A DNA stretch of 64,000 bases, taken from Isurus oxyrinchus. Lineage: Eukaryota. Both the position numbers and the translations under genes were made by a program. Where the stretch lies: positions 186,001 through 250,000 of the forward strand of contig JANJGN010000140.1 in assembly GCA_026770705.1 (NCBI GenBank), in the 5' to 3' direction. Below are positions 3,001 to 64,000 of this stretch, in pieces (position 1 is the stretch's first letter; every line of letters starts with the position of its first letter). The notes beneath the pieces are model-generated. The model did no database searches and was not told the origin of the DNA. It worked only from the letters and a program-made list of their open reading frames with translations.

Positions 3001-3900
3001 CTAAGTCATATCTCAGTTATTATTGCACGAGGTAATCTCCATTAGTGTTAGGCAACATCCTGTCCCAGTATTACACAAGATAATGTCACTCTTTATATTA
3101 CAATAGCCTATGTCTCTGTTGACGGTACATGAGACCCAATCTCATTTATTGCGGCATTACACATGTCTGCTTGCATAACGCTCGGCCATGCCTGAATTAC
3201 TACTGCTTAAAAAGGCTTTGAAGTGTTCGATCAGCCATGATTGTATTGAATGGCGGAGCAGGCTCGACAGGCTGAATGGCCTTCTCCTGTCCGGATGTTC
3301 CTATGCTTCCAGATCCCGTATTATTGGCATTATTCCGAAGCAGACACTCGCCACCTAGCCAAGTAAGGTAACGAGCTGCTACTTTTTGTGTATGTCGTGT
3401 ACACCTGCTTGGATATTGGTAATGTCACTGGACTCCCTCATATTGTAACCTGGCCTCCAGTTGCCGGGCCAGGAAAGATGCCGAGTCTGAGGCGCTGGCC
3501 TTCAGATCAAGAGTCGAATTGAGGTCCCGCCAGTCCGTTCAGGGCGATGTTAAACAATCTCCGTAATATTGGAGTAAGAGCGAGGCGGGGGGTTCTCCTG
3601 GTGTCCTGGGCCCACATTCCACCTTTAACAAACACCACCCAATACAAACACATACACCGACCTCCCAGTTCATCACTGCGGGGAAAGGAAGGCGGCAGCA
3701 CAACTGGCAGAAAGAAAAGCTCCCCTCCCCCACTCATGTACACCAGAGTATTGTGGGAGGGGCTTTCACATCCGGATCACAATCCAAATGTAGAGTCAGA
3801 AAATTGCAGCCTCCTTTTATAACCTGTCTCTTATTCACACAACACAAGCCAGCGACACGGGAACAGTGCGGCCCATCAATAATCTCAACAACATTGCCAT

Positions 3901-4026
3901 GTGCAAATCAACTCGGCCCCGCGAAAGTATTTCAGTCCAGCTCTGAGGTCCGGTCTCCCATTGCAGTCCAGGGCTGCAGTCTCCAGCTCCCCGTCATATA
4001 AACCCTCAGCTGCAGGCAGCAGAACA
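3901..4026 (+). promoter_or_regulatory. Promoter of NAR-type V1: octamer-like GTGCAAAT (3901), conserved block, CGTCA half-CRE and TATAAA (3997-4002)
   Basis: The block TTTCAGTCCAGCTCTGAG...GCTGCAGTCT...GTCATATAAAC recurs in front of all three NAR V leaders (here, 9248-9843 interrupted, 63707-63803). The TATA lies about 25 nt before the ATG. Confidence 0.65.
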
Positions 4027-4069
4027 ATGGGAATCCTCCTTGTTTTCACCCTGTGTGTCTGTTTCCCCC
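4027..4069 (+). CDS. Leader exon of NAR-TCR V1 (MGILLVFTLCVCFP, phase 1)
   Basis: ATG at 4027, hydrophobic signal peptide, GTGAGT donor at 4070. Splices in frame to the acceptor TTTCCAG ending at 4217. Confidence 0.92.
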
Positions 4070-4217
4070 GTGAGTACCGATCAAACAAACCGAAATTGTG
4101 TGGATTCAATATAAAGCTGCCCGAGTCCATCCCAATTACAGACACTGTCTGGGGTTTTGACCTCGTTCTCTGGTTCGACGCCGATTGTCCATTGAACTCT
4201 CTCTGTTTAATTTCCAG

Positions 4218-4500
4218 GATCTTTCAGTCAGTCAGTGACACAGACCCCGGCAGCGGTGACCAGGAAGGAGTGTCAGTCTCTCACCATCACCTGTGTTTTC
4301 TCCGGTGCTTCGGGGCATTATTTCCAAACGGGACATTTCTTCAAACAAACCCAGATCGGGACAGAGTGGGAGCGGATTTCCAGCGGGGGGAGATTTGTTG
4401 TGTCGGTGAATAAAGCACAAAAGACATTTTCGCTGGAAATTCGGGATATGAGAGTTGAAGACGCCGCCACCTATTACTGTAAAGCTCAGTACTACACATA
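4218..4500 (+). CDS. NAR-TCR (IgNAR-type) V segment V1, unrearranged, open frame
   Basis: SFSQSVTQTPAAVTRKECQSLTITCVFSGASGHYFQTGHFFKQTQIGTEWERISSGGRFVVSVNKAQKTFSLEIRDMRVEDAATYYCKAQ. It shows the VNAR hallmarks of a short FR2-FR3 with no CDR2, a GGRF motif and YYCKA, plus an extra FR1 Cys (4271-4273). An RSS follows. Confidence 0.93.
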
Positions 4501-4538
4501 CACAGTGATGGGCCTCGGCTTCCCGCGATACAAAAGCT
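4501..4538 (+). other. 23-type RSS of V1
   Basis: CACAGTG + 22-nt spacer + ACAAAAGCT. Confidence 0.88.
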
Positions 4539-4865
4539 CTCACTGCAGATTATCACAGAAACAAATGAAAAAGCGGAGTTAATCTGCAGTTAAAGCCCCA
4601 CAGTTCCGCCTCACACCGTCTGCCCCACAGTCTAGTTTATAATGAGACTGGATTATTGCCGTTAACATCTTGAGTTTTATAAATGCCCAGTGTGTGCGGA
4701 TGGTGATGCCTTTCCTGGGATTGGTGTCAGTGAATGGGGATTGGGAATGACTGATCCCAGTTAGAAACCCCTAACGCCAGATGTGATCCTGGTCTAACAG
4801 CTGGAACCGGGAACGGCAGTCCCCGCTGTTTAACTAATGTCCCCAAATCTTACCAAGTGCCCGAG

Positions 4866-4938
4866 GGATTTTATGCTGACTTGTAACACTGTGTGGATGG
4901 ATGGGGGAGTCACAGTGGGAGAGACCTGAACAAACACG
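4866..4938 (+). other. D segment (coding 4894-4910, TGGATGGATGGGGGAGT) flanked by 12/12 RSS
   Basis: GGATTTTAT-12-CACTGTG on the 5' side and CACAGTG-12-ACAAACACG on the 3' side. All three frames are open (WMDGG, GWMGE, DGWGS). Confidence 0.88.
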
Positions 4939-5253: not shown

Positions 5254-5292
5254 GGTTGTTGTACAGGGGAGATTGTGAGCGGTGTCACTGTG
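5254..5292 (+). other. 23-RSS of NAR-TCR J1
   Basis: GGTTGTTGT + 23 nt + CACTGTG. Confidence 0.9.
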
Positions 5293-5345
5293 GTGGGAAA
5301 CTGATTATGCGGATGGATCCGGGACAGTGGTGACTGTCACAGCCG
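5293..5345 (+). CDS. NAR-TCR J segment J1 (WETDYADGSGTVVTVTA, phase-1 donor)
   Basis: G-x-G-T-x-V-T-V motif, upstream 23-RSS, GTAAG donor at 5346. Confidence 0.92.
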
Positions 5346-6189
5346 GTAAGTAGTTCCAAACCCCGCCGGGTTATAGCCTGTCCCGGGTAACGTTCACCAT
5401 CAGTTTATTATTGATATCAGTGGAGTTTGGGTGGGATGTGGGAGTTGACAGGATCTGGACCATTATTGGTTTAATGGGCACATCGGGGACAATATCAACA
5501 TCACGGACTCTCACACTCTGACTCGCTTTTAATGAGCGCAGATTGTCGACAATCCGGACTCCACTCCCGGTGCTAACTGTGACCGACGGAGCTCTGTCTG
5601 TCCCTTAGAGCCCGGGAGCGGGGTCACAGAGCTCTCTCCTGGGCAGCAGATTGCATTCCGAGCCGCGGAATGAGGTACCGGGTGAATAAACTGAACACAA
5701 CTGCGGCCAGTTCGGATACCTGCAGCAGCTCGTTCCATACCTGACCCGGGAGAAAAACGGGAGAGTGAAACAACGGCCTTCAGATATAAGAAATCCTGAT
5801 ATGGGTCCAGATGGAATTTTATTATTGGACAATCAGTGACTGAAATTAGTGACATTGTCCCCGCCATTTCTTTCATATAACCAAACACTTTCCTACTTTT
5901 CCGCCCTCAGACTGAAATGTGTAAGTTTGGAACTGCAGCCGCTTCTCTATATTGAATGTAAATGTTTGAGAGATGGGATTGCTGAAATGTATCTGTATCC
6001 CTGATTACTGTGAGTTGAAACAACACAGTGCAGTGAGACAGAGAGGATGATGCATTAATCTTATAAAGGAGAACAGGAACATAAGGAAACGATTGTAAGT
6101 TGTAAATTGGGGGGAATGTTCATTTAGAAGCAGCAATAAATAATTCATCGAAAGCGGGAGAAGGATTGGTGGATCTCTGGCCCAGTCAA

Positions 6190-6795
6190 AGTACAATCCG
6201 AGCCCAGTGCGGGTGAATGAGTTAAATGGACGGAAGGACTGAAATGGGCTCCAGTCTGGAATGCTTTGTAAAGTTTTGGTCTCCTTACTAAAGGAAGGAT
6301 CTACATGCATTGGAGGGCGTGCAGCAAAGGTTCATCAGACTGATTCCTGAGATAAAGGGATTGTCGTATAAGAAGAGATTGAGTTGTCTGGGCCTATGTT
6401 CCCTGGAGCTTAGATGAATGAGATGTAATTTCATTAGAAATCTAACATCCAGGGCACGATATATTCCCGGTGGGTGTCTCCCCAGGCTGAGAAGCCTATA
6501 ACTAGGGGTCAGAGTTTCAGGCTAAGGACTCGATCCTGAGAAATGAGAAGAAGAGAAATTTCTTCAGTGAAGCCACTGTTGTGAATCTCTGACATTCTCT
6601 TCCTCAGAGAGCTGTGAATGCCCAGTAGTTGGATGTTTTAAAGGAAGTATTCAATAGATTTCGGGATGCTAAAAGAATCAAGGGATATGGGGACATTGCT
6701 GCAAAGTGATGTTGAGTTAGGAGATGAGTCAGGTTATTATTGAATGTCGGAAAAGGTTTGAAAAGTGACGTGGCCGCTCCTGCTTCTGTTTGTTA
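6190..6795 (+). mobile_element. CR1 LINE 3' fragment, degenerate
   Basis: Similar to the 3' ends of the CR1 copies at 23600-24180 and 28900-29516. Confidence 0.6.
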
Positions 6796-9302
6796 CATTA
6801 ACTGCTCTGATCTGTTACACTTCTGAGAAAAGAAATCAGGAATAATCTACATCTCTGTGGAGAGGTTGAACAGGCCGGGCATCATGTCTCTGGAGAACAG
6901 GGAAAGAAAAGCAGAATTCATGGAAGTCGTTTAAATAACGAGTGGGTTCATTGGGGTATTTGTGGAATAGCTGCTTATTTGTGGGTGAGCCTAGAGCCAT
7001 TAGAATAAGACAGTCACTAACAGAACAAATAATGACATTAGGAAGAAGTGTAAAGACAGGCAGGTCAGAGTGTGGAACTTGCTGCCGCAGGGAGTGGTTG
7101 GAGCAGGTAGTATTGATACATTTATGGGAAGACTTGAAAATACAGGAGGGAGAATGGAACAGACTGACTCAGGGAGCTGACTGGAAATGGTCAATTAGAT
7201 TTCGGACAGATGGGGGCTGGTCCGCAGTAAATACACAGGCATAAATCATTTGAGCGGAATGGATTATTCCTATTCTGGCAGATATTATGTTAAATTACAA
7301 TTCGAGAAAACTTCAACCAGTCAATCAGTAAATGGGCGGAAATTTTTTTTTAAATTGTCAGCAAGGGGGAAGACACAGTTCCGAGTGAGTAACAGTAAAA
7401 CTACTGCGGAAACTGAACAGACTGAACCCAACAGACAACTGAGAGACTTTGGGGCAAGTTCCCACGATTGCTACGTTCCCATGCAAGAAGCACAAACTGC
7501 ACAAAGGAAATGGAGAAATAAAATGAAACTAAATGTAAATATATCAAAATAAGTGGAATTGGAAAAAAATTAAACCTATTGATAGAAGAAATTATGTTTT
7601 TTTTCCCAAACAAATGCTGATTGAAATACATTCAGATAATATTTCTCCTTCCATTTAAAGAATCGTGGTCTCTTAAAATGAGACTGCTACAATCTGAGTG
7701 TTCGTAATTATGATGCCAAAATGTATCCGTGTTCCTACATTACAGACGATGACTCGGGTGATCGGCCATATTGGCCTCTCAGGATTCATGTTTTACGAAG
7801 ATCACTGTCACGAGCTGCTGAAGGGACCTTTCATTGTACTAAATGTGCTTTAAAATGCAATTCGTATTTGTGGTAGCTCTGAGGCAAAACATGCTTATGT
7901 CATGCGCTGTTCTGCACCATTTCGCGCCAGTAGCTTTCAAAACCAGAAGGAAATTGGACAATATTTAATGTGCAAAACTTGTGGATGAAGCAGAAAGGCT
8001 TTTTCAGGTTTTTATTTTAGTTTTCGATGAATTAGATGATGCTTATGTCTTTTATTGCACATTAGGGATCAGCGGCAGCCCATCTGGAGCTACTCAAAGG
8101 TCGATTAAACAATCGACCACTTTTGAGCGACGTACGATCGGCCATGTTTATGTGATGTACAGTCAAACAAGATAGTGTGAGGTCCTCTGCTCCTGAAGTA
8201 GTTTCTTGGCCCTTTTCTGCCCTTTTCATGCCTGCCTGGATTACTGAGCAGCCCCATGTCCTTGCATCCGTCAGTTTCCAGGAGCATTTGACTGCGGCCA
8301 GTTCACAAGGTTCACTTCAACAGAACGAATTGTTAGATCCAGGACAGTTTAAACACAACTAACAGATTTCACCAAGTTAGTGGGTGTGATATTTTAAACA
8401 AGTCCCAAACACAGTGTTCGCCCCCATTTCAACTGTCCTCTGAGTGTGGCTTCATGTTCTAACACTACAACTGGAATCTCTGAATAAACCAGACCTAGAA
8501 ATCAAACATTGTTTTCTGGAAACATCATTTTAAATGCAAGTCATAGGGGAAGGTTGCAGCAAGCATTTGTTTCAATGAAGTGGAGAGTTTATTCTTTGTG
8601 GTATTTCTGTACTTCCGCCTTAATATTGGCAAAGTCTCTGGACTGTCTCACATTGTAATCTGGTCCTCAGTTCCTGGACTATGGCGGGTGTAAGGCTCCT
8701 TCCCTTGGAACAGACTTTCAGCTGAAGACCCACCAGCCAGTTCAGGGAGATGTTTAATAATTTCCCGCACAGGCAGCTCTGAAGAAGAGTTATACAGACT
8801 CGAAACGTTAATTCTGTTTCACTCTTCACAGATGCTGCCAGACTTGCCGAGTTCTTTCCAGCATTTTCTGTTTTTTCATGACAGTTAGAATAAAATTGAG
8901 GAAAGAGGGATTCTTTCACACTCCATTCTCATAAAATACCATTTGCCAAACACACATGGACAGACCTGCCAGGTCATTACTGTGGGAGAATGAGGGCTGC
9001 AGATTTCACTAATGGAAACAAATCCACCTCCCTTGCCCCATTACACTGGGCACTGTACATCAGACAAATGGGAGAGGGGACTTCACATCAGGCTTACAGG
9101 CCCAACGAAGCAATATGAAACTGCTAGTTCCGTTTTTAAACCTGTCACTTGTTCAGAAAACACACAAGCAGAGAGATGGGAATGGGGCAGCTAATCAATC
9201 ATCCGCGGGACATCGTCCTCTGCAAATCAACTGTACTGTCTAAAATATTTCAGTCCAGCTCTGAGTTCCAGTCTCCCTGAGCAGTTCAGAGCTGCAGTCT
9301 CC

Positions 9303-9800
9303 TACATTTAAGCAGAACACCGTGGAAACCTGAAATAAAAACAATAAATGCTGGAAATAACTCAGCAGTTCTGGCAGCATCTTTTATTTTATTCTTTGGA
9401 TGTGGGTGCTACTGGCAAGGCCAGCATTTATTGGCTATCCGCGTATTTCAGAGACAACAACATTACTATGGGTCTGGAGTCATATGTAGGCCAGACCAGC
9501 TAAGATTAGCAGATTTTCTTCCCTAAAAGCTGTTAGTGAACCTGATGGGTTTTACAACAATCGACAATGGTTGTATGGTCATCCTATTCGACTTTTGATT
9601 CCAGATTTTTATTCAATTCAAACTCCACCATCTGCCGTGGCTAAACTCGTACGCGGGGCCACAGGATATTACCCTGCGTCCTTGGACTACTAGCCTAGCA
9701 ACAACACCACTCCACAGCGATTGGAAATGTTAACGCTGTTACAATCTCCACAGACGCTGCCAGACTTGCTGAATTTCTGCAGCATTTTCTGTTTTTATTG
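9303..9800. mobile_element. ~500-bp insertion in the V2 promoter (inverted-repeat-bounded element with an internal SINE-like segment)
   Basis: Splits the conserved promoter block between ...GCTGCAGTCTCC (9301) and GCTCCCCGTCAT (9803). The ends AAATGCTGGAAA..CTCAGC..GGCAGCATC and GACGCTGCCAGACTTGCTGA..CAGCATTTT are mutually inverted. Confidence 0.7.
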
Positions 9801-9843
9801 CTGCTCCCCGTCATACAAACTATCAGCTCCAGGAAGCAGAAGG

Positions 9844-9886
9844 ATGGGAATTTAATTTGTTTTTACCCTGTGTGCCTGTTTACCCC
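9844..9886 (+). pseudogene. Inactivated leader exon of NAR V2
   Basis: ATG GGA ATT TAA places an in-frame stop at 9853-9855. The donor has degenerated to GTGGCT, versus GTGAGT in V1 and V3. Confidence 0.9.
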
Positions 9887-10034
9887 GTGGCTACCGATCA
9901 AACAAACCGATATTGTGTAGAATTAAGATAAAGCTACCCGAGTCCATCCCAATTATAAACACTGTCATGAGTTTTAGCCCCGTTATTTGGTTCGGCTCTG
10001 ACGGCCAATTAAACTCTTTTTGTTTAATTTCCAG

Positions 10035-10379
10035 GCTCTTTCAGTCAGTCAGTGGTACAGACCCCGGCAGCGGTGACCAGAAAGGAGTGTCAGTCCCTCA
10101 TCATCACCTGTGCTTTCAAAGGTAATTCTCATCGTTTAGAGGACGGACAATTCTTCAGACAAACCCAGACCGGGACTGAGCACGAGCGGATATCCAGCGG
10201 GGGGAGATTTGTTGTGTCAATAAATAAAGCAGAAAAGACTTTTTCGCTGGAAATTCGGGATGTGAGAGTTGAAGACACGGCCACCTATTACTGCAAAGCT
10301 CAGTATAAATATGGATGTGGTTCCCTTTGGAAAGATGGTTCTGTAGACGGATCCGGGACAAAGGTGACTGTCACAGCTG
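10035..10379 (+). CDS. Germline-joined NAR-type VDJ exon (V2), open frame, phase 1-1
   Basis: SFSQSVVQTPAAVTRKECQSLIITC...YYCKAQYKYGCGSLWKDGSVDGSGTKVTVTA. V runs directly into J with no RSS. The acceptor TTTCCAG (10034) and donor GTAAG (10380) are intact. Confidence 0.92.
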
Positions 10380-13300
10380 GTAAGTGACTGAAAACCGCGA
10401 CGTGTTACCAAGTATCCAGGCAAATAATCTGCATGGGGAGGGGTGGCCTCGTGGTACTGTCATTAGACAAGTAACCCAGCAGCCCTGTCAATCCTCTGTG
10501 TGCTAACTCTAGTTCATATCCCACCGCAGCAGCTGGTGGAATCCAAGCACCAGGAGTTAAATGTTGTTCTTAGTATGGTGATCATGAAACTACTGCCGAT
10601 TGTTTCGAACTGCCCAGCACTATACTCTGCTTAATGGAAAGAAATCTGCTGTTCTTACTTGGTTTAAACTACATATGACTTCAGACACAAAGCGTTGTGG
10701 TTTATCCTTAAGTGCTTGGTGAAATGATGGCCAAGCAAGCTACTTATTTGTATCAAATGGTTACTAAGTCTCAAAGAAAAGGATGGAACATGGACCACAT
10801 CACTTGGCATACCACCGGCCATCTGCCTAGGCTTCGGAAATGAGAATGGCAAACCCAGGCCTGTCCATCCTTTCAGTGTCCTCCTTACTAACCTCTGGAA
10901 GTATGTGCTAAAATTGGGAGAGCTTTCCCACATGTTTGTCAAGCAACAACCTGGCAGAGTCAAGCTCACGGAATCATAACGTACAATGTCTTATACAGCA
11001 CCATCACTATCCCTGTGCATGTCCTGTGCTACCGGCAGGATAGACCCAGAAGTGGCTGCACGGTGATATACAGTGAGCAGGGAGTTGCCTTGGGAAGCCT
11101 CAATATTAACTGCAGACCGCAAGGCGTCTCATGGCGCCAGCCCAAACATAGGAAGCAAACTTCCTACTTCTTATCAGCTATGTACGAACCGCCACTTGAG
11201 CTGATGAATCAGTACTCCTCGGTATTAAAACCAATTGGTAGAAGTATTGTGTGTGGGAAGGACTGCACTGTACTCCACTCTATGTGCTGCGTAAAGGTTA
11301 AGATTCATAATCGAGAAAAGATCTATATGTGTTGAAGGAAGTGAACAAAGTTTCATCAGGCAGCTTCCTGAGTTAAATGGTTTATCCTATGAGAAGAGGT
11401 GAAGGAATGACAATCTGCATTCCCTTGTGTTATGATGTGTCAGATGATGTGTGCTATGGATACAGCCACTTTTACAGTCTCACCACTTTAAAAGCCCCAT
11501 ACCAATTCCTGGATTCAATGTTCTTCTGACACTCGTAGCCTTAAGATTGAACATCTCCGAACTAATCAAGGAATTTCTAACATCCCGCAAAGAGCCCCCA
11601 GTTATGATATCACATGGCAGGTGATGTGTGCTAGGTGGGTCAAATCCACAAGGGAAACTTCATCGCTCTGTCACAACGGTTTTGCAATCGATATTTGCAT
11701 TGATTCTGAAGTAATGAGTCCAGCAAGACATTTAGAGACTTTTAAGAAATTAAATTAGAAGATTTATTCACAAAATAAAATATTCCAAACACATACATGA
11801 GATGACAAGGTATTTACTACCATAACAACTCCTAAAATTCTGAATTAACTTGACACCCAGTTATACACCCCTTAACGGCAACAGTCCAAATAGATTTTTG
11901 ATTTAAAACAGAACCAGCAAGTTAACGTAGCACACACTTGATAGTGGAATTCCTAATGGCTTCCCCAACATCACTAACATCACAAAGCAGACATATGCAA
12001 AAATGTCTGGCTGCTTCATAAAAGTTGTTTCACGAATTCATGTTAGATCTTACATGGCCCTCTCCTCACATCACTTTTCATTCTCCCGTATGTATGTTTC
12101 TCTCTCTTTAACATGTAAATTCTATTGTCCCATATGTGTTTAAAACTGCATCTTCCTCACTATATGAAAACTTTCATGTTGTCAATATTGTCAGCTCCCT
12201 TAGGAGCACATTAACACGAACGTCTTAGCCTTTCTTATCTAGCTAATTTTATGCAGCCTAGCATCCCTTTGAAGCCCAAATTCCCTTTACACTGTACATG
12301 CTAAGCCCCATCCACATTTACGTCTTAACATTTCAAGCATATTTCCACACAAATAGCTTCCTTTGATAATTTCAAGCTTGCTGCACACTTGACTCCAAAT
12401 GCAATAAAATCACACAGACAGAGCCAACAATACTTACATCCATTAACATACTGCAGAATAAACCAGAAAAAAAAAATTATAAAACTCATTATACTTTCGC
12501 AACAGTAGTTTCAAGGAATGTGAGCTGATCTCATTGGAACATATATTCTCAACGGGCTGACAGAGCAGATACTGCTGGGTATTTCCTGAGGCTACTGTTC
12601 TGAACCTGTTGCATTCAATACCTCAGAGAGCTGCGGATACTCAGTGGATGAATGGGAGTGTTCCATAGATGTTAGGTTATTAAAATAAATTGGGAATATG
12701 GGAATGTGATGCTTACGTCGAAGATCAGCCACGATATTATTGAACGTCCGAGCAGGTTTGAAAGTTGTTATGGCCATTCCTGCTTCTATTTGTAAGATTC
12801 TTTGCATTGATTTCTTAAAGTTCTGAGAAAAGAAATCAGCAAAAATGCAAATCTCTCTGGAAAGATTGAACAGGCTGGGTCACCTTTCTCTGGAAAACAT
12901 AGAACCAGGGAGAGAATTCAGAGAAATCTTTTAAATTATGAACGGGTTTAATGGAGTGCATGGGTTACAGCTGTATATTGGTGCATGAGTCCAGGTCAGT
13001 AGGACATTAATATCAGATCGTCACTAACGGAACAAAGATATTAAGAAGAAAAATGTGCGCTAAGACGCATCAGAATGTGGAACTTGATGCCACATTGAGT
13101 GGTTGGAGCAGACATTATTGGTGGATTTATGGGAAGGCTGAAAATACAGGAGGGAGAACGGAACAGGGCGGCTCAGGGAGCTGGATGGAAATGGTCAATT
13201 AGATTTCGGGTTGGGGGTACTGGTATGGAGTATACCCACAACATAAGTCACTGTGCCGAATGGCTGGTCTCTCTCCTGCAGATGGAGTACATTGAAAAAC

Positions 13301-14250
13301 TTAGAGAAAACTCCGCCCAGAGAACGCGGAGAAAATCAGTCAAAAGGCGAAAGAATTGAAATTGTCAGAGAGGCGGAAGAGGCAGTTCCCAGTGAGTAAC
13401 AGTAAAACCACTGCGGAAACTGAACAGACTGAAGCCAACCGACAACTGAAAGAGATTGGGACAAGTTCCCACGATTGTAAGACGTACAAATAGTGCAAAA
13501 TAAATGTAAAAATAAAATGAAACTAACTATAAATATTTCAAATTAAAGAGAAATGGGGAAACAGAGATTAATCGAAGAAAATAAACTAATAGACCCAAGA
13601 GCAGATGGAAGCAACTGAGAAGTGTTAAACTGCAGCTAATGGGTGACATTTCACCATCGATATTCACTATCTGTTTGACCCGATTGGTGCTGCCGAATTG
13701 CAATCGCATTCTGTTGAATCTTGCTGTGCGCAGTGATGCGTTATATCTGGGTCACTGTCTGACAAATAGTTTTTGGAAACTGACTGTTTCACTGTTAATA
13801 AGAAGTTCCCTCGGGGTTGTCTCTCAGCAGGGAAAATAAAAACACATCTAATATACATAATAGAACCATTCAGCGCGGAAGGATGACATCCGGCCCATCG
13901 TGTAAGTGCTGTCCCTTTAAAAGTGTAATCCAATTGTTCCCACCACTCATGCATATTCTCCATATTCCTGCATTTTTTCTGCTTCAGAACAGATACATCA
14001 CCCGTTTGAAAGTTACTACTGAATCTGTTCCCAAAACCCATTCAGATAGTAAAGTCCTGATCGGAGGAATTCGCTATGGAAGAGAAAATATCATCTCATT
14101 CCCCAGTTGACCATAGTTCAGTAACAATGAGCAGCGTTCGAACAGGCTTCAAATCGAGATAAAAAAACACAAAGCTGTTCGCGCGATTGACAAATTCCCC
14201 ATATCAGCAGTAGCTAAACAAAAACAAAATGTTCATTTTTCACCCTTCAG

Positions 14251-14556
14251 GTTCCCGTCTCCTGATATTCCAGAATCCGCCTTTACAAACCTCTGCTGCT
14301 GGTGACACCGTTACTTTAAGCTGTGAATATTCAGGTATCTGTCAGTACACAGTACACTGGTACCGTCAGTCCCCAGGACAGGCTCCGGAATATCTGCTTC
14401 AGAGACACACTTCAGGAGAGGAGAATAAAGAAAATGCTGTCGGGGAGAGAATTTCTGCTTCTATCGATTCTGCCAAGAAAATCAGCCGGTTAATTATCTC
14501 CAAACTACAACTGAGCGACTCCGCTGTGTATTACTGTGCACTGAGTCGGCGCAGAG
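14251..14556 (+). CDS. Leaderless supporting TCR-delta V segment of NAR-TCR
   Basis: SRLLIFQNPPLQTSAAGDTVTLSCEYSGICQYTVHWYRQSPGQAPEYLL...SDSAVYYCALSRR. It has TCR alpha/delta V motifs, an extra CDR1 Cys (14340-14342) and a phase-1 acceptor CCCTTCAG. I see no upstream leader exon. A perfect 23-RSS follows. Confidence 0.9.
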
Positions 14557-14595
14557 CACAGTGATACAGAGCATGGAGAGAGCTGTACAAAAACC
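14557..14595 (+). other. Consensus 23-RSS of the supporting V-delta
   Basis: CACAGTG + 23 nt + ACAAAAACC. Confidence 0.95.
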
Positions 14596-15007
14596 TGAAC
14601 ATGGTGGGAAATACAGACACACAGTGATAACAGAGCACGGAGAGAGCTGTACAAAAACCTGAACATGGTGGGAAATACAGACACACAGTGATACAGAGCA
14701 CGGAGGGCGCTGTACAACAATTTAACATGATGGGATTAGAGGCACACAGTGATACAGAGCACGGAGAGAGCTGTACAAAAACCTGAACATGGTGGGATTA
14801 CAGATACACAGTGATACAGAGCACGGGAGGGAGCTATACAAAAATTTAACGTGGTGGGATGAGAGACACACAGTGATACAGAGCATGGAGAGAGCTGTAC
14901 AAAATCCTGAACATAGTGTGATTACAGACACATAGTGAAACAGCACGGAGAGAGCTGTACAAAATCCTGAACATCGTGGGATTGCAGACACATGGAGATA
15001 CACAATG
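14557..15007 (+). repeat. Tandem array (~62-bp unit, ~7 copies) of the 23-RSS
   Basis: Heptamers at 14557, 14620, 14684, 14745, 14807, 14869 and 14931 (CATAGTG). Each is followed after 21-24 nt by an ACAAAAACC-like nonamer. Confidence 0.93.
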
Positions 15008-18562: not shown

Positions 18563-21177
18563 ATGCACGGGTCAGTGAATGGACCTGTCTATGCTATTTA
18601 CTATCCTGTTCTCGCTGTTATTAGTGTCCAGGGTAAGTTATAGACTCCAAATTAATTATTTACTTTCTTTTAAGTCGCCAGAACACTTGTGCCTTAGATT
18701 TCGGGAAGGGTCTTTTTTTAATATTCAGCGCTCTGTTTGAGTTTAAGGAACGTCAACTGTGTTCCTGTATAGAGGTGCAGTATATGATATTGTACTGCAT
18801 TACGGTGACTTATAGTTTATGAATTCCACTTGCATGATGTAGCAGCACAAGATATTATTCAATGATCTATGGTGCAAGTTTATAGAAACAGCGTCTGTTG
18901 GGTTGCTGAATTATGAAGTATAATGTATGAAAATGTATGGACAGTATTACGTTACATTGTTAAACATTAGCTTTCATTCCAATGTAATAAAATGCATTAT
19001 AGCGTTTTTAACATTGTATGGAATAATGGCGTATCACAGAGTATTAAACATCATTGTCGTGCATTTATTTTATTACAATGATTTACACTGATTCTTTACA
19101 GTGCAATAATTACACTAGATGCATTGTGATATAAATTGTACACTCATTAATTGCAGGAATCAGCAGTGCAACCTCTGGAAGGAAGTAGTATTTTTCATTT
19201 ATTATTATGCAGTAGAATATAATATTTATTTATTACTGTCGTTGGCAAGGTCAAAATTTATTGCCCATCCCTCGTTTCCACTTGAGAAATTAGAGTTGAG
19301 CTTTTTACTTCAACCTCTGCAGACCGTTTGGTGAGGGAAGGTGCTTCACAGCAGATTTAACAAACAAAATTTGATATCAACTACATAAGGAGAAATGAGG
19401 ACCGATAACCAAAAGCTTCATCGAATGAGTAGGATTTGAGAATCGTCTGGTAGAAAGAAAGAAAGGTGAAGGATTTGAGGGAGGGATATCCAGACATTAA
19501 GGCCACGGCAGCAAAAGGCAACTTCGCCACTGGTGGAACATTTAATTTCTGGGGTAGACAAGATTATAGATATTGGCTGTGAGCAAAACGATGTTAGAGG
19601 GTTACTGGAGTAAGTAATGGCGAGGCTATGGGTGGATTTGAAAGCAAGGATGAGGAAACTAAATTCAAGGTGTTGCCAGGCTGGGAGCCAATGTAAGTGG
19701 GTGAACACAGGGCTGGTGGATGACTGGGACTTCCTGTGAATAGGAATATCCCCACCAAGTGCTTCAGATGAGTTTAAGATCACTGATGACCTAAAGTGGG
19801 AGAACGCCAAGAGACTATTCCAATTGTTGGCATCTAGATGTTACAAATGTATGGGGAAACCTTGAGCAGCTGCTAACCGAAGGCAGGTTTTGGAATGTGT
19901 GATATTATGGTCGATATTAGAAATGTGGAAGTGACCAGTCTTTGTGCAGGATGATCATCATAGGGCGGAGGACGTTTGGAAGCGCAGCTCTGGCTCGAAC
20001 AGGTCGCCAAGATTGTAAAGGGCCTCAAGCCTCGGTGGATGGACTCAGTGGTGAGAGAACAGAGTTTTTAATGGGGATTGAAGGCAATGTCTTCTGACTC
20101 TCAAATGTCTATTGAATCAAATATGCACTTATCCAGAATTGGATGCCAAACAAGCAGTTACGGCTTTGGAATGGTTGGAGTCAGGAGGTGGCACAGGCAC
20201 GGGTGAGGACGGCTTTTTATTAACAAGTTGCATGAGGCAGCAGCTGGTGTTTGCAGTTCACTCGGTAACATATCTCTCTTTTCCTTCCTCACAGTCAACA
20301 TGGTGGCGATCATAATCTTATCCCGTGGCCGGTGCGGGCTCTCCCAATGCATCACCTATTACCTGGTGCTGATAGTGGTGACAGATTTCCTGGTCATCAT
20401 CACCGCTGTCACATTGAACCGGATCAGTGGCATCTACTTTCGTGAGAGTGTCCTCTTCACCACCCCAGGGTGCGCTGTCAGCACCATGCTCGTCTATGCC
20501 ACACGAGATGGCTCAGTCTGGCTGACCGTTTCGTGGCCATCTGCTGTCAGAGCCTGAAGGCCGGATACTGCACTGAGAAAACTGCATCACTGGTTATAGG
20601 ACTGGTCAGTGCCCTGAGCTGTGTCAAGAGCGTCCCTTTCTACTTCAGCTACCAGCCCTTGTATATTCTGGACGGGGTGCCTTAGTTCTGCAACATCAAG
20701 TCCACCTATTACACATTGCCCATCTGGCAGGTCTTTGACTGGCTTGACCGCATCTTAATCCCCTTCCTCCCGTTCCTCCTCATTCTGCTGCTCAATGCAC
20801 TGACCATAAGGCACATTTTAGCGGCCAGCAGAGCTCGCAGGAGGCTCCGGGGAGCCGAGAGTCACAGAGATCCAGAGATGGACAACCGTAAAAGGTCCAT
20901 TGTGCTGCTCTTCGCCATCTCCCTCAACTTTCTCCTCCTGTGGGTCACCTATGTCGGACATTTCCTGTACGTGCAGATTACAGGTGAGGCATATTTCACT
21001 GGCCTGGATTTCAATGACCCGCAAGTCATCTTTCAAGAGACAACCAACATGCTCCAGCTTCTCAGCTCCTGCACCAATGTTTTCATCTATGCAGTGACCC
21101 AGACCAAGTTCGGAGAGCAGTTGAAGAATATGCTGAAGTGCCCTTCCGCCACCTTCACTGCTTCATTTAATTGGTGA
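18563..21177 (+). pseudogene. GPR139/GPR142-like rhodopsin-family GPCR pseudogene (exon 1 18563-18632, exon 2 20295-21177)
   Basis: Exon 1 MHGSVNGPVYAIYYPVLAVISVQ|GTAAGT splices to VNMVAIIILSRGRCGLSQCITYYLV. Motifs DRFVAIC and NVFIY are present. A frameshifting deletion lies near 20525 and a TAG at 20683. Confidence 0.85.
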
Positions 21178-36390: not shown

Positions 36391-37851
36391 CAGTGACTCT
36401 ATTATTCCAGGGCTCTGTCATATCATTAAATATTCTCTGCAACCCTTCAGAATTTGCACTCATGGTAATCCTGGCCAGTTTACAATGAAATTGTAGAAGG
36501 TTGTTTATGTTTGATGCGATAAAAAGTTCGAATTATTGTCAGATAATATTCGTGCAAGATAATATCCATTCGTTCATGTATCCTGTATTATAAAGGTATT
36601 AGTTAATATCAATTTCAATCCTGCTCCTGCCTGGTAATTCGCGAGATTTTACCGTTCAAGTTAGGTTAACAGGATACTTTATCAATATTAAAAATTTAGT
36701 GTCCACTCAATATATGAATACATTTGGTTAATGTTATTTTACTTGAAGCAAATTCAACTTCATTGATTTAAAATGAGCAGTCTTACTATCTGCTTGCACC
36801 CTTATAAACATTACATGTTTTTGAACAAAATGATATAGCATAAACTCCGTCTATTCTCAGGGCGTATTTCACATATTAGGAAAAAACGAATTTAAATCGT
36901 TCTCTAAATCACCTCCGAAATTTGTAAATGTTTGCTGTATTTTAATAAGATGAACAAATGTGAAATTTGCAACTGTTTGTGTCTGATAACTTTTGTGTTT
37001 TAGAGGCTATCACACTACACTCCATCACTCTGTTCAATTTAGGGCTTCCAATATAAACTTAATCAATATTAACAAATTGAGTGAGAAACAGTGTTAATGT
37101 TTCGAGTCAGAACTCTGAAGAAGAGCCATACGATCTCGAAACGTTAACTTTGTTTCATTCTCCATAGATGCTGCCAAACGTGCTGAGTTGTTCCTGCATT
37201 TTCTGTTTTTAGTTCAGATTTCCAGCATCCACAGTATTTTGCTTTTTTATGAATATATCGTGTATCGTTCCAAAAGTTACGCACAACTGGCAAATGCTTT
37301 TCTTTCTTCAATAAAATCACATTGAAATGATCTGTGATTCTAATATTCTTTTCTCACTAGATGCTCGCGGTAAATTATCCACATTGTAAAACATAATAAC
37401 ATGACATAAAACAGATCTGCTCTCGGAGTGTATTTCAAATGACGGACTTAGCAATGGTCTATTTGAAATAGTTCTGTGTTTCACAGCGAAGATTCGCGAA
37501 TGTTCAACTCTGTCACAATACTACGGTATCACATCATCTCAAAGAATATCAATATATCATGAAAAGGGCCAGAGACATAGACTGTCACAGAACTCATTTG
37601 TTTACTGTTGTCAGATTCTGTCCGTATAACATCAACAGTTTAGTGAGAGGTTCAACCCCAGACCGGCACCTACTCTGGAACAGTCGCTTTATTCTAACAG
37701 CACCTTGAGCACAATCACAAGTAACATTGCATTCAAACTTAAAGAGCCCACTAATCATAATGGATGGCCAAAGTAATTAATTTAAAAAAAACATAATTTA
37801 AGATAAAGACAGGAATATAACCTAATTATTAAGATAGTGCATGTTTCTTAC

Positions 37852-37905
37852 CTGCCGTCACTGTAACTTTGGTACCTTGTCCCCAGTAGTCAAGGCTATC
37901 AGTAC
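37852..37905 (-). CDS. IgH-type J segment (TDSLDYWGQGTKVTVTA)
   Basis: WGQG motif, phase-1 GTAAG donor, and a 23-spacer RSS at 37906-37944. Confidence 0.92.
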
Positions 37906-38274
37906 CACTGTGTTACATTCCCTGCAATGGGCCACACAATAAATGGGTCCTGCATAAAATTGAGGAAAGAGGCCATTCTTTTAGAAAGTAACATCGCACA
38001 ACTAACAATAGATTTCTAAAGCATTACAAAGGTACAATTTCATTAATTTTCATGTTTATACATCAGTCTTTCCTCATTTGATTGCCCAAATTGAATGCTT
38101 CTTCCAATAACCAACTGATTCCTGAATAATTATCTAGCAGTTCTCTCTCTCTCTCTCTCTTAAACCCGGCGAGAGTTTCAGTTCTGGATTACAATATCAA
38201 CACTGCTTCACCACATGTATAGCGAACTCATACTCGCAGTCAGTGATCCAGACTGAGCCTATAAGTTCTGTCGG

Positions 38275-38349
38275 GTTTTTTGTATTGACAGTTAGTAATG
38301 TGATACCCCACCCCATAGTATCACAGTGACACACGCCCGCACAAATACT
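38275..38349 (-). other. D segment (coding 38303-38321, ATACTATGGGGTGGGGTAT on -) with 12/12 RSS
   Basis: On the plus strand: GTTTTTTGT-12-TAATGTG ... CACAGTG-12-ACAAATACT. Confidence 0.85.
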
Positions 38350-38681
38350 GCATTCCCTTTCTGATCAAATCCTGACTTTCAGACTCCATTTCACGAGCGT
38401 TTGCTTTACTGTCAACGATGAGAAGTGTTCAGGATAGATTCATTCCAACTGATAGGAATGTATCGCCAGTCCTTCTAAAATCCTTCAATAGCATATTGTT
38501 GAAACGTTAGCCCCTGGGTCTCCAAACATTTTTGCTAAACATAATACACATGAGAAAGCAAACAATTGTTTTGCTGAAATTCATTTGGTAAGGGGTAACT
38601 CGAGGTTCAGAGTCAGACTGTATTACGAACATTGTTTCTGAACGAGGTGTTCTGCCTGGAGCGTTAGATTCCCCCTCGTTC

Positions 38682-38720
38682 TGTTTTTTCCTGGGTCCAG
38701 CCTTGGTTTCTCTCACCGTG
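38682..38720 (-). other. 23-RSS of VH
   Basis: CACGGTG + 23 nt + GAAAAAACA. Confidence 0.75.
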
Positions 38721-39020
38721 ACTGCCTCGCACAGTAATAGATGGCCGTGTCCTCGGTTTTCAAATTATTCAACTCAACATAGGTTGTGGAAGATTCAGTT
38801 GAAAAAGTGATTCGACTTTGAACTCCAGGCGCGTAAGAGGTGTTGTACCCTTTCCTATAAGCGAGTATGGATTCCAACCCTCCCCCGGCGACCTCTCTAA
38901 TCCAGTGCATATGATGTTGGTTGATATTGTACCCACTCACCGCACAAGACAGTTGGAGAGAGTCACCAATGTTTTTGGAGATGGAATCCGGTTGGGTTAG
39001 CACAATGCTGGCCCGGATAC
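38721..39020 (-). CDS. Immunoglobulin heavy-chain-type V segment, open frame
   Basis: IVLTQPDSISKNIGDSLQLSCAVSGYNINQHHMHWIREVAGGGLESILAY...YAPGVQSRITFS...LKTEDTAIYYCAR. The VH motifs LSCAVSG, MHW and YYCAR are present. Confidence 0.9.
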
Positions 39021-39140
39021 CTACGAGCAAATTATAAAGGAGCAAATCTCGGTGAAAAGAGACATTTTAAAATGCAACAAAGTAAACCAGAATATTTAAA
39101 ATATTAATGACTCTACGATCAATAAATGATCAGCACTCAC

Positions 39141-39189
39141 AAGTAAAGCTAACTAGAAACAAACAGAGGTACAGGAAGAGCACCATCAT
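39141..39189 (-). CDS. Leader exon of VH (MMVLFLYLCLFLVSFT)
   Basis: Hydrophobic signal peptide, GTGAGT donor, phase 1, in frame with the V exon acceptor. Confidence 0.88.
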
Positions 39190-40619
39190 TTGCTTTTTCG
39201 GTAGAAGTTTCTCCAGCCTTGTAAAGACTCCCCGACACCGCTTCCTGATTGTTAATTTCAAACTGAACCGTTCACTTTTTAAACTGGCTGGAACCCAGTG
39301 TCAGGCTGGGGTTCACCATCTTCCCCTTCAGAAACCTAACTCCTCCTCTATTTCCTGTTTATACACCGCTGTTTCCTAAATGGTAAAAAATTAACCATGA
39401 ATAATCCAAGTTACCCAAACTTATATTCTACTTGCCCCGCGACAACGGTGAGTCACTTGGTGGCGCTGTTGCCTCTAAATCAGGCGATTCTGGCTTCAAG
39501 TCCCAGTGAATCAGGCTAATTCTGCAGTGCAGAACTGAGGGATTACTGCAGTTCCGGAGATGCACCTTTCAGATGGGATGCAGATAAAATAGTTGATTAG
39601 ATCAGAACATCAGAAGCTGTGTCGGCTGTAATGCAGATAGATGCCTGACTAGGATTTTCTACCTTAATTTCTGACTTTGTTCTTTGATTTGTTTAAACTT
39701 TTGTGGCTGTCGGCCAGTTTCCTTAACATCCTGTCATAAGGGCAAAGTAAGAGATAAATTTCCCATAATCACATTATTGTCATAACACTGCAAACTTTCT
39801 GGAGGGCAGAAGAATGTGACAGAGAAGGCTGACAACCTGAAGCTTTTCCAGCATAAAGATAAAACTTTCATGGAAAACAACAATCCAGAATAACTTGACA
39901 GATTTTCTGCTTCCTTGAGAGAACCTGCGCTCCCAATTATCTTCAAGGTGGCAGAGAAAATCCCTGTTATGTTAGGCTCCACCGATGTGCGCACACAAAC
40001 CTTTTCTTTGCTGAAATGCAGCAAAACACTCTACAGATCCAACTAAATCACCAGCATCGCAATTACTTATTGTGTATTTCCAGAACAAGTCCGAAACCAT
40101 ACGTTGATGTCTTAGTAATGAGGGTGACAAACTATGCTGTTTACATGAAGTCAAGAGAGTTTGAGAAGCGGCTGTTTGGTTAAATTATTGCAATGCATCG
40201 TAATAGACTCATAGAGTCAGAAGAGCACAGAAGAAGATTGTTAGGTCCTTTGCGCTTTTGCTGGCCCCCGGAGGATAAATTCATCCAATCCTATTCATAG
40301 TCTTTTCCCTGTAAACTGTGTCTTTTTTTAAAATCTTTTACAGATAACGACCCAGTTCCCTTTTGAAAGTCCCGATCAACCTGCATTCCAGATCCTAATC
40401 ATTCGCTGCATGGAAAAGTTTTTCCTAATGTCGCCGTTGCTTTTTCTGCCAAATATCTTAGAGCTGTCTCCTTTGGTTATCGATCCTTCCACAAATGGGA
40501 GGAGTTTCTCCCAATATACCCTTTCCAGACTCTTGTGATTTTGAATAATTCTATAAATTCTGTGATGGTTTAACAATTCTAATCGCAAATGTATAATGTT
40601 TATTTGTACCAAAATCAAT

Positions 40620-59596: not shown

Positions 59597-60498
59597 TTAC
59601 CGTTTAAACCAGCCAGTGAACGTGGTGACCGGCCACATCAAAACCTTCCTCAGCTCCTCTCGGAACTTCTTCTGGGCCACCGCATAGATGAAGACGTTGT
59701 TGCAGGAACTGACTAACTGCAGCATGTTGGCTGTCTCCTGGAGGATATACTGCGGGTCATTGAAGTTCATGCTGTTGAAGCAGCCCTTACTTGTAATCCA
59801 CACGTAGAGGAAATGTCCAACATAGGTGGCCCACGGGAGGAGGAAGCTGAGTGCAATCGCAAAATGCAGGATAATGGATCACTTACGATTGACCATCTCA
59901 GGGTCTCTGTGACTCTCGGCGCCCCGGAGCCTCTTGCGGGCTCTGCTGGCCGCTAAGATCTGTCTTACGGTCAGGACATTGAGCAGCAGGATGAGGAAGA
60001 AAGGGAGAAATGGGGTTAAGATGCGGTCCAGCTAGTATTAGGCCTGCCAGGCGAGGAAAGTGAAATAGGTGGATTTGAGGTCGCAGAACCAGGGCACCCC
60101 GTCCAGGATGTACAAAGGCTGGCAGACGAAGTACAAAGGGACGTTCTTGACGCACCTCAGGGTACTGACCACTCCTATAACCAGCACCACAGTTTTCTCG
60201 GTGCAGTATCTGGTCTTTAGGCCCTGACAGCAGATGGCCACGAAACGGTCGATGGTGAAGGCGACTGTCAGCCAGACTGAGCCATCTTGCATGGCAAAGA
60301 CCAGCATGATGCTGACTGCGCTTGCTGGGGTGGTCGACAGGACACTGTCACGAAAGTAGATCCGGCCAATCCGGTTGAGGATGGCGGCAGTGATAATGAC
60401 CAGGAGATCGCTCACTGCTATTGCCACCAGGTAGTAGGTGATGCACCGGGAGAGTCCACACTGTCTTCGGGATAGGATTATGATCACCACTACGTTAG
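59597..60498 (-). pseudogene. GPR139/GPR142-like GPCR pseudogene, main exon
   Basis: NVVVIIILSRRQCGLSRCITYYLVAIA..AFTIDRFVAICC..NVFIYAVAQKKFREEL with internal stops near 60038. Paralog of 20295-21177. Confidence 0.85.
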
Positions 60499-60803
60499 CT
60501 GATAGATGAACGTGAGGGATAAAAAGAGTGAGATGTTACCGAGTGAACTGCAAACACCATTTACTGCCTTATCCAATCAGTTACTGATCCCCTCCTAATC
60601 CGTCCCTTTGCCATCTCTAGACCACAAATCTTCAAAAGCCATTGGTAATTGTAAAACATCCAATTCTGGATTAGACGTGTGTCAATCCAGAAGGCATTGC
60701 AATCCGTTCCCACCACAATCTCAGCTCTCTCGTCACTGAGTCAGCCCAAGGCTAGTTATCCAATTTCAGTTCATCTGAGACAGCTGCCGATACCCACATT
60801 CAT

Positions 60804-61590: not shown

Positions 61591-63706
61591 TATTACACTT
61601 GATGTCTTATAGGATTATAGACAAGACCTCCTGCAATGACAACCGAGAGGGAGTCTAACATAATACTATGAATGGTGTGATCTCGGCAAGTCATTACTGG
61701 ACATGGCTTAGAAGAATGCAGCAGTAAATGAGACAGGGTCAATGTGATATATATGCGTCACCCAATGCAGTAATAACTTAATAACCGGTGCAATCTAAAT
61801 AATGACATGGTCTAGCTTAATGTTGGCAGACGCAGGATTGAGTGTAGTATAAACAGGGATATGATATGTTGTAATATACACTGTAACAAAGATGAACAAT
61901 GACATTGTCTAGAGGAGTAATACTAACTTAAAAAAGGTCTAGCGTAATGGAAACAACCGCATAGACATCGACATAGACATAGAAAGGGACTCCTGTCATA
62001 TAAACAGAGACAAGATCGAGTGCAATAACAATTGAGACAGGGTCAATTGCTATACAGCCAGAGATAGAATCTTGTGCAATGATTACTTGGATAGATGGCC
62101 ATTTTATAATCAAGAAGTAGTGGACTAGAACAATCATAATCAGGCCCTGGTGAAACAGTAAATGAGACAGAGCATACTGTAATAATCAAGGAGCCAGAGA
62201 CTAATGAAATAATAGTGAGGCTCTGTAGAAACATAACCACAGGCAGAAAGTAATGTGGTAATCGAGGAGACAGGGACTAATGAAATAATAAACAGGGTCT
62301 AGCCAAATATTATCAGAGTCACACCGATGTCTATCTATCAACGACAAATGGCAGAAAATAATAATCAAGACCAGGCAACACACTAACAGAGGCAGAGTCT
62401 CGTGCCACAATCAAGGGCAGGATTAGTACAATTATAATCCGGACCTGTTGAAACACGAACAGAGGCTCAAACTTCATTGCAAGTTTAATCTCACGATTTA
62501 GTTTCTGCGCAAATGGTGCCTAAAGCTATGACTTCTCTGGTAAGTTCCATGCTGATCTGTAAATCGCTCGGCAGGAAAACGGGTATTTAAAATTTGAGAT
62601 AAGCAGTTGTTTTGCCCAGAGATAAAACAGTAACCAATTTATAACGAACCTGGTGGATATTAGCACAAAATGGTAAACAACGGGCACTATGATGAGAGTC
62701 ACGTATTTGGGTGAATATTTGGACATTGCGGACGCCCTGTTTGCTGGAATGTCAATAAGAATATCGAATATCGACTAGTTCTGTGTGACTTCCCGTCTGC
62801 CTTGCTTGTGCGCCGCACAGTCAGCCTTTTTTGTGCGGCCAGACGCTATCGGGAATTCCCCGTTTTTTCCGTTATTGACATGTCTAGGTCTGCCTGTAAT
62901 ATTGCACAGTCCCTTTCCCATGATCTCTGTCATGTCCTGGATTCTTTACTCGCAGACTCTGTCACTGTTAATGATAAGTCTGAATATTACAGAACTGGAA
63001 ATCAATCCTCACTGAATTGAATCATCATTTTAAATGCAAAACAGAGAAGGGAAGCGTTTGTTTAAATGAGAGAGGGGTGTTGTTTTTCGCGTATGTTGTA
63101 TATATCTTCCTGGATGTTGTCAATGGGCTGTATCATATTGCAAGCTGATCATCAGCTGCTGGACTGAGGTCAGGCATTTAACCCAGATCCCGTCAACTCC
63201 TTCAGGGTGTTAATGAATTCCCTGCAGTATTGCAATGAGTGGAAATAAGACCACACAGTAAATACACATGGAACCACCTCCCAGCTCCTTACTACAGGGG
63301 GAAGGAGGGCAGCAGCACCTACTGACAGAACCACACCCATCTCACACCGCCCTGTTCAACAGAGAAATGTGAAGGGGATTTAACATCCAGCTCCAATGAA
63401 GCAAGAGATAGCTGTAAGCTTCCCTCATTCAGCCTGAGAGTTATTCACACAACACACAACCAGAGACCGTGTATCCGTGCGGCCCACCACTGATCTCGCG
63501 GACACTGCCCTCTGCAAATCAGCATTAGCCCACATTAAGCAGGGCATCCCAAACTGCGTGTCACGCGACACCCAGTGGGGTTACGAGGCCGGATTCGTGG
63601 GTCGTGAGTTCCGAAGCAGCAACAGACTGAGTGCAACAGCTCCGCCCCCTTTGAACCCTTGATTTAATTAAATGGCAGGCGTGGCCTAATTTTCGTGCCT
63701 AAAATC

Positions 63707-63803
63707 TTTCAGTCCAGCTCTGAGGTCCGGCCTCCCAATGCAGTCCAGGACTGCAGTCTAGAACTCCCAGTCATATAAACCCCCAGCTCCAGGCAGCAGA
63801 ACG
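63707..63803 (+). promoter_or_regulatory. Promoter of NAR-type V3 (TATAAA 63774-63779)
   Basis: Homologous to 3930-4026. Confidence 0.65.
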
Positions 63804-63846
63804 ATGGGAATCCACTTTGTTTTCACTCTGTGTGTCTGTTTACCCC
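63804..63846 (+). CDS. Leader exon of a third NAR-TCR V (MGIHFVFTLCVCLP)
   Basis: Intact ATG and GTGAGT donor; intron homologous to that of V1. Confidence 0.88.
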
Positions 63847-63988
63847 GTGAGTACCGATCACACAAACCGACATTATGTGGATGTCATATAAAGCTGCCCG
63901 GGTCCATCCCAATTACAGACAGGGGGTTTGACCCGGTTCTGTGATTCGGCTCTGATGGTCCATGAAACTATCTCTGTTTAATTTCCAG

Positions 63989-64000
63989 GAGATTTCAGTC
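63989..64000 (+). CDS. Start of the third NAR-TCR V exon (runs off window)
   Basis: Acceptor TTTCCAG, then (R)DFSQ, homologous to the V1 and V2 starts. Confidence 0.75.

Follow-up and report, generated by a model that had tools for sequence, protein, structure and literature searches.

T-cell receptors with two V domains in one chain arose twice, as NAR-TCR in sharks and as TCR-mu in mammals, and for both it has been proposed that a V gene turned into a supporting domain inside the chain. Shark NAR-TCR is reportedly a doubly rearranging TCR-delta, a description said to go back to Criscitiello in 2006. According to the portions of the papers available to us, its features are an IgNAR-like V, a Cys in the A-B loop, the absence of the Trp of the WYRK motif and a supporting V-delta that lacks a leader and carries a Cys in CDR1 (PMC1845163, PMC12227049, PMC5931798). 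It is presented either as a chain that has gained one additional V or as a V of single-domain type within the TCR-delta locus (PMC12227049, PMC6795676, PMC3149040, PMC5931798), and the available portions of these last four papers make no mention of a pre-joined or a third V. Marsupial TCR-mu carries an invariant, germline-joined internal V, V-mu-j, under a rearranging V (available text of PMC3457774, PMC2275272 and PMC7615758). In sharks, germline-joined immunoglobulin genes have been described in which RAG-like joining in germ cells fixes the V(D)J exon (Lee et al. 2000, PMC2193156, in part). The intermediate step towards double-V receptors is a model, of which the literature available in part offered no observed example. 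Likewise, that literature yielded no account of an NAR-TCR that is joined in the germ line or has three V domains, and an earlier mention elsewhere is possible.

The window, by which we mean the whole 64-kb stretch of DNA that was analysed, is, judged by its segments, part of a shark NAR-TCR/TCR-delta region. On the plus strand, the order is L1-V1-RSS, D, J1, V2, then a supporting V-delta followed by a row of RSSs. The first cassette begins with a TATA box (3997-4002), a 5' UTR and an intact leader exon L1 (together 3997-4069, ATG at 4027, donor GTGAGT at 4070). The unrearranged V1 exon (4218-4500) is open and carries its RSS (heptamer at 4501, 22-bp spacer; 4218-4538 in all). Next come a D segment (4894-4910) flanked by two RSSs with 12-bp spacers (4866-4938) and J1 with a 23-bp-spacer RSS (5254-5351, heptamer ending at 5292, J end at 5345, donor GTAAGT). 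V2 lies at 10035-10379 behind its own upstream promoter block (8952-9302), which is homologous to V1 3648-3984 and to V3. The supporting V-delta (14251-14556) is leaderless and open and has a CDR1 Cys, as described in the part of PMC1845163 available to us; the hallmarks given there for NAR-TCR V or supporting V-delta are present in V1, in V2 and in this V at 14251. Behind it stand seven tandem RSS copies (14557-14967) with 23/24-bp spacers and a period of 60-64 bp, six of them with a perfect heptamer. A third V, V3 (63260-64000: promoter, intact leader at 63804-63846, exon start at 63989), is cut by the window end and served as a comparator only. Queries with TCR and IgNAR sequences found no C exon within the 64-kb window. 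A protein search with V2 returned gene models of Carcharodon and Cetorhinus as top matches.

The window holds other features as well. At 37850-39190 on the minus strand, opposite in direction to the NAR-TCR cassettes, lies an open IgH-like leader-V-D-J cassette (V at 39018-38716, D 12-RSSs at 38302 and 38322, a J with a WGQGT motif and a donor). Two rhodopsin-family GPCR sequences, at 20207-21177 (plus) and 59597-60535 (minus), are in pieces spread over several frames; two of three pieces match 7tm_1.

V2 is, as read from its sequence, a NAR-TCR V-D-J exon joined in the germ line. Its 345 nt form 115 open codons of phase 1-1 between an acceptor TTTCCAG and a donor GTAAGT, as an earlier note on this DNA had claimed when it called the exon untouched. 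Within this single exon, the CDR3 starts at the V end, continues with 6 nt that match the D core and passes into the 3' half of J, and no RSS adjoins V2. The four cysteines are the two canonical ones, one in the A-B loop (residue 18, in KEC) and one extra in CDR3; FFRQ stands where WYRK is expected, so that the canonical Trp is absent. The predicted fold is a VNAR-type domain (pLDDT 87), the top Foldseek matches are VNAR structures at 33-42% identity, and V2 matches the IgNAR sequence P0072 at 46%. Hence, V2 shares with NAR-TCR V genes the IgNAR-related V, the A-B-loop Cys and the missing WYRK Trp, and downstream of it lies a supporting V-delta that has a CDR1 Cys and RSSs and no leader. It has no typical leader peptide and does not undergo somatic V-D-J rearrangement, whereas V1 does. 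By these features, V2 is classed as a derived member of the NAR-TCR V genes and not as a canonical first-domain gene. Being VNAR-type, it does not have the VH-related V and C-mu of TCR-mu. The in-frame V-D-J junction together with the kept leader intron (9887-10034, acceptor intact) is what RAG-type germline joining gives; retention of this intron argues for joining at the DNA level, and retroposition was rejected on this ground. The joined CDR3 was found in DNA contigs of three organisms and in Carcharodon models. A further joint touches the V1 cassette: contigs in runs X1, X5 and X20 on 4492-4910 carry a V-to-D paralog joint, with 18 other letters between the segments in X1 and X5, and look like a germline V-D-joined NAR-TCR paralog.

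The promoter and leader of V2 are in a very different state. The earlier note had listed four lesions there, and each of them is found in the sequence. Homology to V1 stops at 9302 and restarts at 9803, which leaves an insertion of 500 bp (9303-9802) where about 500 bp had been claimed. The insertion consists of repeats with further copies in the window; an inner repeat is flanked by inverted arms (9334-9382 and 9752-9799), and the 3' end of the insertion lies 11 bp above the TATA position. There, TACAAA (9814-9819) replaces the TATAAA of both V1 (3997) and V3, at the same 30-bp distance from the ATG in V1 and V2. The leader exon (9844-9886, with its donor 9844-9892) starts with an ATG at 9844 and meets a TAA at codon 4 (9853-9855), while the leaders of V1 and V3 are open. 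Finally, the leader donor reads GTGGCT (9887-9892) against GTGAGT in V1 and V3, with the GT retained in this genome. These lesions suggest that the V2 promoter is silent. As for the comparators, which the note had taken to be intact, V1 is so. V3 falls short: its exon is cut after 12 nt by the window end, which makes it unusable as a control, and its upstream block has an insertion of its own of about 165 bp (63522-63700), about 70 bp above the TATA box and thus farther off than that of V2.

A DNA contig of run X1, which may be the source sample, covers 9813-9885 with 0 differences and rules out assembly error as the source of TACAAA and the stop. More broadly, DNA contigs from other runs and organisms also carry the lesions and the joined CDR3, which rules out both assembly error and somatic rearrangement. 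Run X1 also has loose ends at 9809 and 9860, of 30 and 11 letters, which weakly hint at a second V2-like copy in organism A; this possible copy has the same insertion tail and apparently a TAG at leader codon 4.

How the exon came to outlast its leader can be read in two main ways. According to the first, V2 is an ordinary pseudogene of a pre-joined NAR-TCR family: it was inactivated by either the insertion or the stop and picked up its remaining lesions by drift, the exon was spared by slow shark evolution or gene-converted by paralogs, V1 messages skip V2 or the cassette is unused, and the acceptor serves stray sterile transcripts. We regard this as a real possibility, though short of even odds, and the insertion in the V3 promoter fits it. 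The distribution of the lesions speaks against it to some degree. By our own estimate of target size, the leader side makes up 24-28% of the inactivating target. That three to four lesions all fall on this smaller target has p 0.004-0.02 (post hoc); counting only lesions further to the first, the values are 0.06-0.08 for two and 0.014-0.021 for three, again post hoc and dependent on how a lesion is defined. The leader-side clustering is therefore mildly beyond chance. In addition, changes found only in V2 reach 12-13% over promoter, leader and intron versus 2-7% for V1 and V3, about twice as many, and the V2 framework stays close to consensus, departing at 1 of 41 highly conserved columns. Further upstream, V1, V2 and V3 all stand at about 12%.

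Selection on the exon was approached through dN/dS and through simulated survival, neither of which demonstrates it. The framework dN/dS of V1 versus V2, part of the check proposed in the earlier note, is 0.37 (79 codons; dS 0.21, dN 0.076), a confounded value that mixes the time before and after silencing. The few changes that can be dated to the V2 lineage are mostly amino-acid changes. In simulations with assumed rates, an exon evolving neutrally stays open with a probability of 0.55-0.68 at d = 0.015, 0.30-0.45 at d = 0.03, 0.14-0.26 at d = 0.05, 0.03-0.10 at d = 0.08 and 0.005-0.02 at d = 0.12; at d = 0.08-0.12, neutrality predicts 13-19 framework changes. The age of silencing is bounded by d of at least 0.016 and at most about 0.12. 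Compared with its other copies in the window, the insertion differs at 2/41, 13/95 and 7/63 columns, and it lies 5-14% from the majority letters, a rough figure given the few copies. With silencing that goes back no further than the divergence of organism C, survival of the exon would thus be unremarkable; with silencing of the apparent age of the insertion, its probability would fall below 0.1. The range of 0.14-0.68 for d up to 0.05 is what the pseudogene reading can draw on.

Organism C differs from the window by 3.2% in the flanks (95/3001 letters in seven of its pieces; one more listed piece, which differs by 14%, was treated as a paralog and set aside). It shares with V2 the 3' part of the insertion, TACAAA and TAA. 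Its leader has decayed on: the donor carries a G>C change at +1, which removes the GT, and G>T at +4, among more leader changes. Among the contigs of four runs at 91% or above, no indel is listed, and 0 of the 16 listed exon differences is a stop. Positions beyond 10155 in X20, 10118-10138 in X7 and 9803-9865 in X6 are uncovered and were left out; cover of organism C is incomplete and paralogs are mixed among the contigs. In the comparison of leader and exon decay across species that the earlier note had proposed, the non-synonymous counts of 3/31 in the leader and 7/183 in the exon (polarised by hand) do not differ significantly (Fisher p 0.16). Against low-depth contigs of organism C, V2 shows two amino-acid differences (R/H, codon 49; V/L, codon 97) and two silent ones, which is in line with a pseudogene. 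A metagenome scan gave 114 pattern matches, 0 of which were confirmed.

The second main reading, which we prefer at a probability of roughly one half, is that V2 has become a dependent exon run from the V1 promoter, either with a borrowed leader or as a third V domain. It starts from the anatomy of the first cassette, which also stands against the pseudogene reading: V1-D-J1 has all its signals intact and has no supporting V-delta of its own before V2, nor another partner in the window. A profile built from 45 supporting V-delta sequences matches 14253-14546 (iE 4e-58), the only such match in the window, and finds nothing between J1 and V2. A weak tblastn match at 7981-8064 (E 0.43) might have been the remains of a supporting V; this was rejected, since the profile search is empty there. 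The stretch behind J1 (6568-7566) is homologous to that behind V2 (12587-13561), the homology ending before any V-delta. With V1-D-J1 apparently complete and the sole supporting V beyond V2, a productive V1 message must cross V2. All four relevant junctions, L1 to V2, J1 to V2, V2 to V-delta and J1 to V-delta, are in frame with open junction codons. By a crude pyrimidine score, the V2 acceptor ranks joint second among the 102 candidates from J1 to the supporting V and equals that of V1. In a normal gene, too, the V-D-J exon is an internal one; inclusion of V2 is hence the default expectation.

One contig bears on whether this acceptor is used. It comes from run X20, is probably RNA (depth 2.5) and is the only one from that run at 91%. 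It covers 10035-10155 with 0 differences and departs from the genome exactly at the V2 acceptor. Its last 30 upstream letters have 0 matches in the window at up to 3 mismatches and correspond neither to J1 nor to a leader; read in the frame of V2, they contain a stop 8 codons upstream of it. At 10053-10062, ten of the 30 letters occur again, a recurrence that makes an artefact possible. Overall, the V2 acceptor appears live and the X20 molecule looks sterile. The only spliced contig, which does not code in the frame of V2, sits well with a pseudogene. It could also be taken to mean that V2 is a working exon that owes nothing to V1 and is fed from a promoter or first exon beyond the window, or by whatever activity its own promoter has left: the contig does link an exon absent from the window to the V2 acceptor, and TACAAA and a GT donor persist in this genome. 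We consider such a feed improbable, given the in-frame stop in that upstream exon, the TAA at codon 4 of the V2 leader, the loss of the GT in organism C and the absence of a signal peptide, without which no surface chain would form.

The dependent-exon reading, too, meets the limits of this material. Among the contigs compared, none is a J1-to-V2 transcript, the sole junction-spanning contig coming from neither J1 nor L1. For in-frame splicing between a rearranged V-D-J and downstream domains, as in V-mu-j, the frames fit and the acceptor was joined by an exon other than J1. The proposal in the earlier note that a first-domain gene was turned into an internal exon is thus upheld in part: the in-frame J1-V2 and V2-supporting V junctions, the lack of a V-delta before V2 and the single use of the acceptor agree with it, while the missing J1-to-V2 transcript, the in-frame stop of the X20 contig and the mostly amino-acid nature of the datable changes do not.

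Related joined exons occur in other sharks. The closest protein to V2 is the Carcharodon carcharias model P0010 (XP_041031398), at 93% and with the same supporting-V subtype; 8 of 114 residues differ, with derived changes spread about evenly over the two branches, against 8 of 98 in the supporting V. Other models are P0009 (XP_041031384) and P0012 (XP_041031388) from the same species and P0013 (XP_078393265) from Cetorhinus maximus, all of them automatic and with uninformative names. A C-G/S-S CDR3 junction is found in P0009 (twice), P0010, P0012, P0013 and P0062, and P0010, P0009, P0012 and P0013 also have the CDR1 type of V2. Some CDR3 Cys is present in 18 of 53 modelled junctions, most models being stitched from unrearranged segments. 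In P0010, P0012, P0013 and P0062, the CDR3 Cys of V2 comes with an intact leader in the model, own or borrowed, which means that the Cys is probably older than the loss of the leader. In a tree of 54 rows and 91 columns, V2, P0010 and P0009 group together (support 97/83); a single clade for all six has p-AU 0.39 and is neither shown nor rejected. P0009 has two such joined domains ahead of one supporting V and no leader. The first of these domains lacks its 5' part, and 16 of 68 residues differ between it and V2, a point in favour of the pseudogene reading. No complete leader-NARV-NARV-Vdelta protein was noticed (P0001-P0065 and four more examined by sequence, the rest by score and coverage); such protein searches are blind to broken copies. 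A PDB sequence search with P0010 returned engineered antibody fragments among the best 60.

Two further observations concern these models. In P0013 and P0062 of Cetorhinus, the supporting V that follows the joined NAR V has an Arg where the conserved CDR1 Cys is expected. In Heterodontus, the model P0011 has repeated copies of one joined NAR V-D-J end followed by a supporting V, without the CDR3 Cys, and may represent tandem joined exons in a distant shark.

If V2 is a dependent exon, the locus could have formed in three steps. Germ-cell V(D)J joining would first have fixed a first-domain gene; a duplication or deletion would then have placed a partnerless V-D-J module before it; finally, the repeat insertion and point changes would have killed the V2 start. 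Two products could follow. With V1 unrearranged, L1 would be spliced straight to V2, giving a two-V chain with an invariant tip. This borrowed-leader route, in which V2 stays the first domain, was absent from the first reading of the sequence, and the resulting chain may be what the P0010 model shows. With V1-D-J1 rearranged and the supporting V joined to D-J-C-delta, the message would be L1-V1DJ-V2-Vdelta-Cdelta, V2 acting as a fixed spacer. Either product would be ruined by a stop or frameshift in V2, and the exon would thus stay open while its leader decays. In the three-V chain, the free CDR3 Cys of V2 might pair with the A-B-loop Cys of V1, and the A-B-loop Cys of V2 with the CDR1 Cys of V-delta; towards V1, the CDR3 Cys would take over the role played by the CDR1 Cys of the supporting V. 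A TCR-delta chain of this kind, with a rearranged NAR tip (V1-D-J1), a fixed V2 spacer stapled to the tip through its CDR3 Cys and a rearranged V-delta, seems to us unlikely as a whole.

The V1/V2 cassette has the anatomy of the proposed double-V intermediate. If the dependent-exon reading is right, either the known number of V domains per TCR chain would rise to three, or an invariant NAR-TCR would run on a borrowed promoter. In the three-V case, V2 would be a first-domain gene caught midway in its change to a supporting exon, a transition by which both NAR-TCR and TCR-mu have been proposed to arise. If it is wrong, there is still a family of germline-joined NAR-TCR exons across mackerel-shark relatives, a description of which was not found in the literature searched.

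The comparison with known systems places the locus closest to NAR-TCR, with which it shares the IgNAR-like V, the A-B-loop Cys, its own D and J and the supporting V-delta that has no leader and a Cys in CDR1. In the chain described so far, two somatic rearrangements produce two V domains; V2, in contrast, is pre-joined, has no usable leader and is flanked by another, rearranging V-D-J on one side and the supporting V on the other. To V-mu-j, as far as the available text describes it, the likeness is by analogy only: a pre-joined invariant V inside the chain, and tandem V-D-J duplication as the origin of a double V. V-mu-j is VH-like, has C-mu directly behind it and no longer contains a leader intron, a loss for which retroposition has been proposed. 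V2 is NAR-type, has kept its intron and lies on a further rearranging V-delta, so that it would be a third V. With the germline-joined shark immunoglobulin genes, again from the text available, V2 shares a RAG-like join in germ cells; those are antibody genes with promoters of their own, whereas V2 belongs to a TCR-delta cassette and has a dead promoter. The new element in this locus is the leader-dead joined exon inside an intact V1 cassette.
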